From Squalus acanthias (taxonomy: Eukaryota): 64,000 nucleotides of DNA. The number at the start of each line of letters is the position of its first letter. Positions within the stretch are counted from its first letter, which is position 1. A program made the position numbers and the translations under genes. Where the stretch lies: NCBI GenBank assembly GCA_030390025.1, contig JASTWF010000326.1, positions 372,001 to 436,000 of the forward strand, read 5' to 3'. The notes under the pieces were generated by a model. The model did no database searches, was not told where the DNA came from, and was given only the letters and a program-made list of their open reading frames with translations. Shown here one piece after another: positions 60,330-64,000 of the stretch.

Positions 60330-60797
60330 ACACTTAAGCAGCACTTTGCAGGTTCATTTTGATTTGCCATTCCTTGTATCGATTTAGCAGAGACTGTGGG
60401 AGCTGCACTCTGAGCTCTTTGCCTGGTACTCTCCATTGTTCTTTCCAGCACATTTGATGTGCAAGTCTCTCCAGGCCGAGATTCAAGGCTGCAATGAACA
60501 GGATGTGGATGGAAAGCAAGATTAACCATCCCCTTTAAGAACTGGTTCGTGCCATTGTGTGTGTGTTCCATTGCTGACTGACATTACATGAGCTTCGCCA
60601 GCGCGCTGAGTTAGCGCCTCACTCCTTGGCCTTTGCACCTTAAGACAGGTGTGCAGCGCCTGCTTTAGCGCTCCACTCACCTCCCGGGGCGGTAAAAGTG
60701 AAGTTTCCAGTCAGTGCCGATAATTAGCGCCAGGCGCTAATATTTGCGTCCAGACGATATTTGCGCCCCAAATGGGGCGCGACCTAATTTCTACCCC
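60330..60797 (+). mobile_element. Right half of the non-autonomous Harbinger derivative
   Basis: Collinear with 49400-49865; ends AATTTCTACCCC followed by TTA. Confidence 0.88.
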
Positions 60798-60863
60798 TTA
60801 CAGTTCCTTAAGTATCTCTGAAAACAGTTTTTGGGACCTCCTGGATTTTGAATGGATGGTAAC

Positions 60864-61057
60864 TGTGGTAACACAATACAGCTTCCTGTGACTCGAACTT
60901 TATTGCATCACTTCCTGTGATTAGTCCAGGATAAATACTGGACTGAGCAGTTGGATCCTGGAGAGGCATAGAGTAAGACCTCTTTTGTATGTAGCACCTT
61001 TTTAGTTGATTAGAGCTTACTTTAAGTTCACCACGCGTAAGGCTCATTCTTACGACA
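60864..61057 (+). mobile_element. 5' LTR (194 bp) of a Ty3/Gypsy retrotransposon
   Basis: TGTGGTAA...TTACGACA terminal inverted repeat (7/8 match) ending 78 bp before the gag ATG. The 3' LTR lies outside the window, so the boundaries are unconfirmed. Confidence 0.75.
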
Positions 61058-61135
61058 ATTTAATCAACTTTGAAAAACTTCGCACTCAAACTTTTTGGAC
61101 GAACTCGGAACTAAGGATCCAGGGAATCACCCATC

Positions 61136-64000
61136 ATGGAAAACATCCTTAAACCATCGCGTCTTGACTTGGACCCAAACACCCCAGCAGCCGGTAAGGT
61201 GTGGAAACACTGGTATCGCACGTTTGACAATTTTCTCGAATATTGCAAGGCTGATGATGACACAAAGTTGCGGATACTCATCAACTGTGTCACTCCGAAT
61301 GTATTTCAGTATGTCGAGGAATGGGGCAGTTACGAGGAGGCAATTCGGACGCTTAAAAGACTATATACTAAGACACCGAATGAGGTCTATGCCAGACATC
61401 TACTAGCTACAGCCCAACAAGGGCCGGAGGAATCCATTGATAAATTCCTCCAAGAGCTTCGCAGACTTAGTATGGACTGTAACTTTCAGGCGGCCTCAGC
61501 TGAGCTGTACCGTGAAGAAATGATCCGTGATGCTTTCATCTGCGGGCTTGCCTCCCCATTTATACGCCAGCGTCTACTGGAAAGTAAGACACTTGAGCTT
61601 CAGAGAGCTTATGATATGGCTTGCTCTCTAGATCTGGCAAAAAGAAATGCAGACCTTTATACAGTGCCCAGACCTCGGTCTGCTGCCTTAACTACAGTCA
61701 GGCAATTTAAGAGGCCACAGGTGAACTCTATTAGGGAGGACTTTATCCCTGACGATCAATCTGATGACTTCACTGATGAAGAGGATGATGACCCCACTGT
61801 GGCAGCCTCTTGGCAATCTAAGAAATGCTTCTTTTGTGGTGATGAGTTTCACCCTCGGAAATTCTGCCCTGCTCGCAATGCGTTTTGCAGTCATTGCAAC
61901 AAAAAGGGTCATTTTGCAAAGGTTTGCCTATCAAGAGCCTCTACGAGGGCTTATCAAGCTAAGTCCTACCGAACTGCCCCGGTAAGGGCCTATCAAGATG
62001 TTCCGGCTAAAATCTATCGTGCTTCCTCTCGGGTTTTCTCTCGAAGAAACACACCTAGAGTTTCAGCCACTCTTTGTGCAACGACACCAATTACAGCTGC
62101 TTGTCCTCAGAACCTATTCCATGCAGCTACAAAAGCATCAATTAATGGACATACTTTAGATGCCTCAATTGACTCAGGTAGCACTGATAGTTTCATTAGG
62201 GAACAGATTGTTGCAGAGTTAAAGCTACATGTTTTCCCATCGGACCAGGCAATTGCGATGGCTCAGTCATCACTTAATACCAGAATTTCTGGCTTTTGTA
62301 TGGTTGAAATAACACTTAATGGTCACAGGTATCCCTCCACCCGGCTTTCGGTGCTCAAGGACTTATGTAGTGATCTTATCTTAGGGCTGGATTTTCAAAA
62401 GCAGCATAAGAAGCTCACCATTGAGTTCGGCGGATCCAAACCTGAACTCACTATTTCTAATATACGACCTCGATTACCGTTCTGTGCATTGTCAGCAGCT
62501 TCACTGGATGAACCCTCACTGTTTACCAGTATCCCTCCTCGATGCAAACCGATTATAACAAAGTCACAACGTTTCAGTCAGGAAGACCAGTCTTTTATTG
62601 CGGCTGAGATTTCTCGGCTTTTAGCAGAGGATATCATCGAGCCTTGTTCGTCGCCATGGCGCGCCCAGGTCGTTATTGTTAAGAACCCTCTACAACCTCA
62701 CAAGAAACGGCTGTGCATTGACTATTCACAGACCATCAATCAATATACGGACTTGGACGCATACCCATTGCCGCGCATCGATGATATGGTTAATAAACTG
62801 GCTGAGTACACGGTGTTCTCAACATATGATCTGAAAAGTGCCTATCATCAGGTACCCTTGAAGGTCTCAGACAAGCAGTATACGGCCTTTGAAGCCAATG
62901 GACGGCTGTATCAATTTCGTCGCCTCCCCTTTGGGGTCACTAATGGAGTGGCTGTCTTCCAGCGAGCAATGGATGACCTGGTCAAACAGGAAGACTTGAA
63001 GGATACGTTTCCTTATCTGGACAATATTACTGTTGCAGGTCGCAATCAGCGGGAACATGACGCCAATCTCCAACGATTTTGGGATGCACTCCAGCACAGT
63101 AATTTGACATTAAATGCGGCTAAATCCATTGAGTCACAACCAACCATCAACATCCTTGGCTATTGTGTGGGCAATGGCATCATTAAACCTGACCCTGAAA
63201 GGCTTCGCCCACTCCAAGAGCTCCCGCCACCTAAGAATCCGGCCTCCTTGCGCCGGGCCCTCGGCCTGTTTGCATACTATGCTAAATGGATTCCTAACTT
63301 CTCGGACCGAATCCAACCTCTACTGAAGGCCAGCACATTCCCACTAGACACAGCGGCTGTTGCAGCCTTTAACCTCCTGAAAAAACAGTTGGAGAAAGCG
63401 GCTCTTCACTCCATCGATGAGCGTCTTCCTTTTGTTGTTGAGTGTGATGCCTCGGAGGTGGCGATCTCGGCCACTCTGAATCAGGAAGGTCGTCCGGTGG
63501 CATTTTTGTCCAGGACTTTTCAAGGGGCTGAGCTACATTATCCTCCAGTCGAGAAAGAAGCTACAGCCATCATAGAGGCAGTACGGAAGTGGACTCATCT
63601 CCTAGCTCGCCAGCACTTTACCTTAATCACGGACCAGCGATCGGTCGCCTTCATGCTCGATAATCGAAAACGGACCAAAATTAAAAATAATAAAATCCAG
63701 CTTTGGCGGCTGGAATTGGCCTCTTTTGGTTACACCATCCACTATCGACCTGGCAAGGAGAATGTGGCTCCGGATACCCTCACACGAGCATTCTGCTCCG
63801 CCATGGCACCCTCTACGCTCGTAGACATCTATGATGGGTTGTGTCATCCGGGCGTTACTCGCATGCTACACTTCGTGCGGTCCCGAAATCTCCCATTCTC
63901 TACCGGGGATGTAAAGAAGATGTGCTCGGACTGCAGAGTCTGTGCGGAATTGAAACCTCAGTTTTTCCGCCCCTCGGGTGGTATACTCATACATGCGACC
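61136..64000 (+). CDS. Ty3/Gypsy gag-pol polyprotein (Mag-like), single frame running off the window
   Basis: Starts MENILKPSRLDLDP. Two CCHC knuckles (CFFCGDEFHPRKFC, CSHCNKKGHFAKVC), protease IDSGS, RT (FSTYDLKSAYHQ, LPFGV, YLDN at 63014-63025), RNase H (ECDAS, EKEA, TDQR) and integrase start (YDGLCHPG...CRVC). The RT motifs are in frame with the ATG. Confidence 0.93.
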   Translation, partial: MENILKPSRLDLDPNTPAAGKVWKHWYRTFDNFLEYCKADDDTKLRILINCVTPNVFQYVEEWGSYEEAIRTLKRLYTKTPNEVYARHLLATAQQGPEESIDKFLQELRRLSMDCNFQAASAELYREEMIRDAFICGLASPFIRQRLLESKTLELQRAYDMACSLDLAKRNADLYTVPRPRSAALTTVRQFKRPQVNSIREDFIPDDQSDDFTDEEDDDPTVAASWQSKKCFFCGDEFHPRKFCPARNAFCSHCNKKGHFAKVCLSRASTRAYQAKSYRTAPVRAYQDVPAKIYRASSRVFSRRNTPRVSATLCATTPITAACPQNLFHAATKASINGHTLDASIDSGSTDSFIREQIVAELKLHVFPSDQAIAMAQSSLNTRISGFCMVEITLNGHRYPSTRLSVLKDLCSDLILGLDFQKQHKKLTIEFGGSKPELTISNIRPRLPFCALSAASLDEPSLFTSIPPRCKPIITKSQRFSQEDQSFIAAEISRLLAEDIIEPCSSPWRAQVVIVKNPLQPHKKRLCIDYSQTINQYTDLDAYPLPRIDDMVNKLAEYTVFSTYDLKSAYHQVPLKVSDKQYTAFEANGRLYQFRRLPFGVTNGVAVFQRAMDDLVKQEDLKDTFPYLDNITVAGRNQREHDANLQRFWDALQHSNLTLNAAKSIESQPTINILGYCVGNGIIKPDPERLRPLQELPPPKNPASLRRALGLFAYYAKWIPNFSDRIQPLLKASTFPLDTAAVAAFNLLKKQLEKAALHSIDERLPFVVECDASEVAISATLNQEGRPVAFLSRTFQGAELHYPPVEKEATAIIEAVRKWTHLLARQHFTLITDQRSVAFMLDNRKRTKIKNNKIQLWRLELASFGYTIHYRPGKENVAPDTLTRAFCSAMAPSTLVDIYDGLCHPGVTRMLHFVRSRNLPFSTGDVKKMCSDCRVCAELKPQFFRPSGGILIHAT

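Follow-up and report, generated by a model that had tools for sequence, protein, structure and literature searches.

Candidate Tf1-like self-priming in a chromodomain-less Ty3/gypsy retrotransposon clade of animals

How does an LTR retrotransposon begin reverse transcription when the sequence beside its 5' LTR does not look like a binding site for a tRNA? The question is raised by an element at the end of the window (the whole stretch of 64,000 nucleotides that was analysed), which belongs to a eukaryotic assembly of 3.7 Gb. An earlier note on this DNA had proposed that the element lacks a tRNA primer-binding site (PBS), that its PBS is complementary to a part of its own LTR, and that it may prime itself like Tf1 while lying outside the Tf1/sushi chromoviruses. 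Our analysis supports this core proposal, as the true end of the LTR is not followed by TGG, the two complementary stretches show compensatory changes among relatives, and there is no chromodomain. Hence, we consider it likely that the minus strand of this single-ORF Ty3/gypsy element is primed by its own RNA, in the manner of Tf1, and not by a tRNA.

The element and its copies

The window contains the 5' half of an intact and recently active Ty3/gypsy LTR retrotransposon of 4.4 kb, with a single gag-pol ORF and no chromodomain, which runs off the window end. We fetched the contig sequence past that end (locus L031), which holds a full copy of the element. In this sequence, a repeat of 194 bp recurs 4247 bp downstream with 99% identity, giving an element length of 4441 bp. 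Both LTRs begin with TGTGG and finish with CGACA, the five bases GTAAC flank the element on both sides, and a polypurine tract (GGGGGGGGAGAA) precedes the 3' LTR. Since the 3' LTR, the 5-bp target duplication and the polypurine tract fix its edges, the LTR corresponds to window positions 60864-61057. The same edges were found in three other full copies, and the LTR end at CA (61056-57), from which the earlier note had argued, is thus upheld by all these elements of evidence. The features of the 5' part are the following.

60859..60863, + strand: left copy of the target-site duplication, GTAAC, which is repeated after the 3' LTR in L031.
60864..61057, + strand: 5' LTR of 194 bp, TGTGG...CGACA, delimited by the 99% identical repeat downstream and by the three other full copies.
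60930..60937, + strand: TATA-like box GATAAATA, a candidate core promoter read from the sequence, about 74 nt upstream of the arm.
61004..61014, + strand: putative primer arm, an LTR-internal 11-mer complementary to the PBS, with one G:U at 61013 in the window copy.
61009..61014, + strand: last six bases of the arm, which may serve as a poly(A) signal; they read ATTAGA in the window copy and ATTAAA in almost every other copy.
61015..61057, + strand: loop from arm to PBS (the rest of R and U5), with internal hairpins predicted by folding, from which the minus-strand strong-stop DNA would be copied.
61058, + strand: spacer of one base, A, that separates the PBS from the LTR end; it is present in all 22 alignment rows, where the columns C-A-A-T are invariant.
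61059..61069, + strand: putative PBS TTTAATCAACT, without TGG, recognised by a complementarity to the arm that is kept in relatives.
61070..61135, + strand: 5' untranslated leader; the ATG of the ORF is at 61136.
61136..64000, + strand: single gag-pol ORF, which continues past the window (1318 aa in total; L031:437-4393).

The ORF encodes two CCHC knuckles, an aspartic protease, a reverse transcriptase (RT), an RNase H, and an integrase of which only the start lies inside the window. The domain order PR-RT-RNase H-integrase, together with the two TG...CA LTRs, the target-site duplication and the polypurine tract, is that of Ty3/gypsy elements, and among solved structures the RT comes closest to those of Ty3 (E = 6e-37). 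A Pfam search of the full ORF with E values up to 0.1 found no Chromo domain, and the precomputed Pfam lists of 120 listed relatives contained no chromodomain. The Gag matched no Pfam family, and its matches in a search of the ESM Atlas were generic Gag-like clusters only.

The RT itself has an unusual box. Motif C, at window positions 63017-63028, reads YLDN instead of YXDD and aligns to the YLDD of Ty3. A simple pattern found this box in 86 of the 120 listed relatives, with D-N in 77 and D-D in 9. The loss of the second aspartate is unusual in so successful a clade. A literature search on YLDN and retrotransposons found no paper with the motif. According to the accessible part of PMC2148107, the RT of Ty1 keeps polymerase activity in vitro when one of its active-site aspartates (D211) is changed to asparagine.

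The family of the window element is young and abundant. A 21-mer across the LTR end and the PBS occurs 2261 times genome-wide, and many copies are 99-100% identical. Since the LTR pairs within copies are also 99-100% alike, the transposition competence of a family with so many LTR-PBS junctions is plain. A second LTR subfamily (B) accounts for 808 additional LTR matches in the genome, and its copies likewise carry 5-bp target duplications. An apparent preference for target sites of the form xxAAC was rejected as a selection artefact: the loci had been ranked by a query containing the window's own flank, and duplications other than xxAAC occur in subfamily B copies.

The surroundings and distribution of the element deserve a few remarks of their own. 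Just upstream of it, positions 60600-60800 of the window belong to a far more abundant repeat, whose summed contig depth in four runs is about 5-25 times that of the LTR. In another part of the same genome (G000:C1:562315-575075), four LTR arms follow each other on one strand with a spacing of 4247 bp, which suggests a tandem array of elements sharing LTRs. Sequence near-identical to window positions 60864-62400 (48-88% of sampled 31-mers) is present in runs filed under five organism labels in six studies, so that the family is common to several taxa or samples.

Complementarity between the LTR and the primer-binding site

We re-read the sequence around the LTR end and found all letters and coordinates of the earlier note to be correct. 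There is no tRNA-type TGG: the CA is followed by ATTTAATCAACT, and TGG is absent from the 28 nt after the LTR, where the sequence reads A, then TTTAATCAACT, then TTG. Nine nucleotides inside the LTR (AGTTGATTA, 61004-61012) are the exact complement of TAATCAACT (61061-61069), and the pairing extends to 11 bp (61004-61014 versus 61059-61069) with one G:U pair (G61013:T60). The TTAGTT that had been read as initiator-like is present at 61002-07.

The G:U pair is private to the window copy when compared with the copies that were read: the position of 61013 is an A in 32 of 32 other 5' LTR-PBS copies, resulting in 11 perfect Watson-Crick pairs. In the genome, the LTR-internal 20-mer with the A has 4262 matches, versus 6 for the form with the G. 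The A is also the majority letter in contigs of four public runs. These contigs also reveal the second LTR subfamily, and they resemble DNA unitigs in that they end at LTR edges and connect the LTR with the polypurine tract; they show no transcript start, end or strand. The rare G is present in both LTRs of the window copy and in both LTRs of one further full-length copy (G000:C11:121520984-121525249). Hence, a copy with the G:U pair either still transposed or was duplicated with its flanks.

Other families of the same genome have longer helices. Subfamily B carries one extra A before the arm and has a helix of 12 bp, and a third and older family (host family C, with an LTR of 229 bp) has a 12-bp match. 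Position 12 of the helix is C:G in host family C, A:T in B, and a T-T mismatch in family A.

The arm:PBS helix is part of the minimum-energy structure computed by ViennaRNA in 19 of 20 family stretches. For the window family, it is found in the minimum-energy and in the centroid folds, whether the RNA start is assumed at the arm or 46 nt upstream. The earlier note had added an adjacent stem between GAGCTTAC (61013-20) and GTAAGGCTC (61037-45). Its letters are correct and can form an imperfect stem, but it does not survive as a fold, since ViennaRNA prefers two smaller hairpins in the loop of the window copy (61013-19/61023-29 and 61036-42/61048-54). Most of the 20 family folds have a short predicted hairpin of the form RCCT-loop-AGGY directly 3' of the arm, whose sequence is unalignable across families. 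The folding energies were not significantly different from those of shuffled sequences (z = -1.52, -1.55 and 0.00). As they are no better than shuffles, the case for the helix rests on covariation and not on thermodynamics.

To study the layout beyond the own genome, we collected relatives of the element. Polyprotein relatives that are 58-89% identical from RT to integrase were found in records of shrimp, nematode, copepod, tunicate, sea anemones, mussels and catshark, and in many other assemblies. A scan of IMG/VR found no relative. We gathered 80 related loci in metagenome contigs, with an alignment of 15 relatives; these families are 47-60% identical to the window element in RT-integrase, and their arms vary over the tree. 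The layout counts cover 23 of these loci, since short length, truncation or decay left no definable LTR end in the other 57. Among the 23, 16 loci have both LTRs, so their ends were set independently of the PBS, and seven have one definable end (L049, L050, L055, L069, L074, L089 and L122, in circularly permuted or truncated contigs).

In all 16 two-LTR relatives, the LTR ends with CA and is followed by one A and then by TTTA or TTTT, and the PBS is complementary to an LTR-internal stretch located 20-65 nt before the LTR end. The LTRs of the relatives measure 141-249 bp. The exact match between arm and PBS spans 11-17 nt in 14 of the 16 loci; the two others are decayed copies with exact matches of 8 and 7 nt, which become 14 and 12-13 paired positions if mismatches are included. 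The seven single-end loci show the same CA-A-PBS layout and an LTR arm. The letters of the helix differ between families: 16 different 11-nt arms were counted in 21 families, and at least 14 distinct PBS 11-mers occur, each matched by its own LTR. Examples of such mirrored sequences are TTTAACTAGCTAAA (L048), TTTTAACAGCTTA (L052), TTTATTCGACTAGAAAT (L070), TTTAATAAACTTG (L064), TTTAACAAACAAAAG (L099) and TTTATTAAACTTATTC (L121). A single assembly contains nine loci with four different PBS sequences, each of which is again matched by its own LTR.

The loci also differ in what follows the PBS. The leader of the window family has 66 nt, versus almost none in L052, L063, L064, L067, L070 and L096, where the ATG of the ORF lies 3-8 nt after the PBS and the 5' leader is almost all primer site. 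In L074 (positions 150-280), the LTR end and PBS (CACA-A-TTTAACCAACTT) are duplicated about 55 nt apart, upstream of the ORF.

To assess covariation, we aligned 22 arm-to-PBS stretches, whose first and last 13 columns are gap-free, leaving out L063, L068 and L096 (near-identical to L070, L067 and L052) as well as L055 (its contig breaks inside the LTR). In the resulting helix of 13 pairs, 95.1% of the 286 cells are paired, versus 77.4% in shuffles, in rows that were chosen and cut at the helix itself, which favours pairing counts, although for 16 loci the comparison of the two LTRs had fixed the LTR ends independently. Changes on both sides were observed in 9 of the 13 pairs (45 cells), and the covariation score is 0.476 versus 0.134 in shuffles, both computed on mutually related families and for a structure derived from the same sequences. 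None of 500 shuffles reached the observed pairing, two-sided changes or covariation score, and 91 of 500 reached the observed count of further pair types. When the partners were slid by 1-3 columns, 20-51% of cells paired, and when the PBS arms were re-dealt among families, the observed pairing was reached in 0 of 10000 permutations. Double changes separate even close relatives (L064 from L067, and L048 from L049). Hence, the compensatory changes that the earlier note had named as a check are present, and pairing is kept across the relatives.

Proposed priming mechanism and alternative explanations

The arm has a recognisable anatomy. Its consensus in 21 families, anchored on the helix, is AG-Y-N3-W-TAAA, with the last three A invariant or nearly so; the G at position 10 is invariant, and R-C-C comes next after the arm. 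The last six bases are AATAAA or ATTAAA in about half of the families, and GTTAAA, TTTAAA or variants in the others. The arm may thus double as a poly(A) signal, which would overlap the 3' end of the primer.

The position of the arm in the RNA is less straightforward. A transcription start at A61004, as initially predicted, would be analogous to Tf1 and would fit the motif T-N-T-N-AGY, which resembles an initiator and is conserved at the arm start in 20 families. However, given the TATA-like box, the RNA would be expected to begin near 60955-60962, some 45 nt upstream of the arm, and the place homologous to this box in host family C reads the canonical TATAAATA. Across 20 families, no promoter motif was found at a fixed distance before the arm. 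Furthermore, helix position 12 is paired in 19 of 21 families and position 13 in 17, and helices reach 17 bp; in relatives, such helices of 12-17 bp require that the RNA begins upstream of the 11-nt core. Given the pairing at positions 12-13, the upstream TATA-like box and the missing fixed-distance motif, a start at A61004 is doubtful, and the arm probably lies inside the RNA instead of forming its first bases as in Tf1.

Self-priming could then proceed as follows. The R-region stretch 61004-61014, which ends with GAUUAAA-3' in most copies, would fold back onto the PBS at 61059-61069, one base past the LTR end, closing a loop of about 44 nt with small hairpins in it. Immediately 3' of the arm (after TAAA), a cut made by the RNase H of the element, by analogy with Tf1, or by another nuclease would free a 3'-OH. 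From this end, the RT would copy the spacer A and U5 until it reaches the cut, an extension of 44 nt in the window family. The short strong-stop DNA would then transfer to the 3' end of the RNA and anneal to the R copy there, between the arm and the poly(A) site. Plus-strand synthesis would finally copy the primer into the PBS and thereby renew the match between arm and PBS at each cycle, a rematching that would explain why the covariation is so clean. The mechanism would work even if the RNA did not begin with the arm, but it would depend on the cut 3' of the arm.

The most serious alternative is that the arm:PBS helix is a structural RNA element, involved in packaging, dimerisation, translation or control of the poly(A) site, and that the primer is something else. 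The RNAs of LTR leaders often fold around the PBS, as in the retroviral U5-leader and U5-IR stems, and the conservation of an arm that often ends with AATAAA or ATTAAA could partly serve polyadenylation. Yet, a primer must anneal within 1-2 bases of the LTR end, and this place is wholly occupied by the partner of the arm. The site also varies among families in one host, its sole constant partner being the own LTR, and TGG is absent. We thus regard a purely structural helix as unlikely.

Priming by a small RNA of the host, for instance an internal tRNA fragment as in the half-tRNA priming of copia-type elements, with an LTR arm that merely mimics this RNA, seems to us very improbable. A faint resemblance of the arm to a tRNA D-loop would count in its favour. 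Half-tRNA primers are indeed known in Ty1/copia lineages, according to the accessible part of PMC6317226. However, a primer made of a tRNA fragment would keep the PBS constant and would need no copy in the LTR, whereas the PBS 11-mers are of at least 14 kinds, each with its own LTR match. The four PBS types in one assembly, in particular, are hard to reconcile with a single host RNA as primer. For comparison, nine distinct host tRNAs, a small sample since the family search returned mostly one tRNA type, gave a longest exact complement to the PBS region of 6 nt. Finally, a chance match of AT-rich sequence has next to no probability and is ruled out by the covariation counts: both arms are AT-rich and one 9-mer match found by eye in a 64-kb window is not rare, but among 8500 trials with shuffled LTRs of 17 families an exact complement of at least 9 nt arose in 57 and of at least 11 nt in 5, and every testable relative has the same geometry with different letters.

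Self-priming by the element's own RNA, the reading that we favour, would have consequences beyond this locus. Self-priming, which is not known to have been demonstrated outside Tf1, is commonly taken as a sign of the Tf1/sushi chromoviruses, apart from isolated predictions for other elements. The same signature is now found in a large and successful animal clade, with about 2260 intact junctions in one genome and an unusually clean covariation. If the reading is true, the priming mode is evolutionarily labile within Ty3/gypsy, and the fixed CA-A-TTTA together with an LTR arm ending with TAAA offers an easy key for searches and a system open to direct tests. Annotation pipelines that seek a tRNA PBS will score such elements as having no PBS. 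The elements would also be independent of host tRNAs. The available sections of PMC7472051 describe tRNA-primed elements as vulnerable to PBS-directed silencing by 3'-tRNA fragments, which the window clade would, by inference, escape. On a broader scale, the evidence leaves us evenly divided on whether a deep, pan-metazoan and chromodomain-less Ty3/gypsy clade swapped tRNA priming for self-priming independently of Tf1/sushi, using as primer a segment inside R that overlaps the poly(A) hexamer with its invariant 3' end and is rematched with the PBS at each cycle. In such a scenario, freedom from host tRNAs and from PBS-directed small RNAs may aid crossing between animal phyla.

Comparison with known self-primed and tRNA-primed elements

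The closest parallel is the Tf1 system. In the part of PMC7175516 available to us, the Tf1 RNA's first 11 bases anneal to the PBS and RNase H cleaves between base 11 and base 12. Tj1 of S. japonicus is self-primed like Tf1 and Tf2 of Schizosaccharomyces pombe, and all of them are Ty3/gypsy chromoviruses (PMC4600332 and PMC7175516, both in excerpt). Like these elements, the window clade has no tRNA PBS, has a PBS beside the 5' LTR that complements about 11 bases of its own RNA, and would fold back to close a loop with predicted internal stem-loops, the primer 3' end being the proposed cut at the end of the duplex. Unlike Tf1, it has no chromodomain, its Gag has no Pfam match, its hosts are animals, and it is known here from sequence alone. 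Between its arm and the LTR end there are 43 nt, and the arm may be about 45 nt inside the RNA, versus at the first base in Tf1; it ends in an invariant or nearly invariant AAA, often within AATAAA or ATTAAA.

Self-priming has been shown experimentally for Tf1 and predicted for the Tf1/sushi group, for Tcn1-like chromoviruses of fungi and mosses, and for the TAR lineage of plant copia elements (PMC6317226, in the sections available). Several fungal elements are also predicted to self-prime (accessible part of PMC6934838), and Skipper is odd in a different way (PMC5006619, likewise in part). In sushi-ichi and the vertebrate Tf1/sushi elements, and in Tcn1-like elements, self-priming is read from the complementarity of PBS and LTR, as it is here, but the window clade lacks the chromodomain of these chromoviruses. 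The TAR lineage of plant Ty1/copia elements (Houba, Osr-1) is an independent case of a PBS complementary to the own LTR, as far as the available text of PMC6317226 describes it, and it differs from the window clade in superfamily, domain order and hosts.

By its architecture, the window clade resembles the Mag lineage (Mag, SURL/C-clade, Jule, Steamer and Steamer-like elements), which has a single gag-pol ORF, a length of 4.4-5 kb and LTRs of about 150-250 bp, and is widespread in aquatic animals. The LTRs of Mag C measure about 174 bp and have ends of the form TGTNATRT...AYANAACA (PMC3601003, Table 3). The LTR ends of the window clade are near these att motifs, in an approximate match compared by eye. 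Architecture and LTR ends together suggest that the clade is probably Mag-like. In full-text searches, we found no link of self-priming to Mag, SURL or Steamer, and the first descriptions of SURL, Jule, Steamer and sushi or the papers of the Levin laboratory may contain an earlier mention. The described members of the lineage use tRNAs: Steamer has TGG directly after the LTR and a PBS for tRNA-Leu (PMC8905726, in the part available), MchSLE1 uses a tRNA-Asn primer (PMC11046912), and Mag-like elements of Culex use tRNA-Leu, Ser or Arg (PMC3286476). Unlike these members, with their Leu, Ser, Asn or Arg sites, the window clade has no tRNA PBS. The window clade would have the self-priming layout of Tf1 in a different setting, as a clade of animal elements that lacks the chromodomain and is probably Mag-like. 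Its own features appear to be a fixed one-base spacer, a primer whose TAAA end often falls within a poly(A)-type hexamer, and a probable location of the arm inside the RNA.
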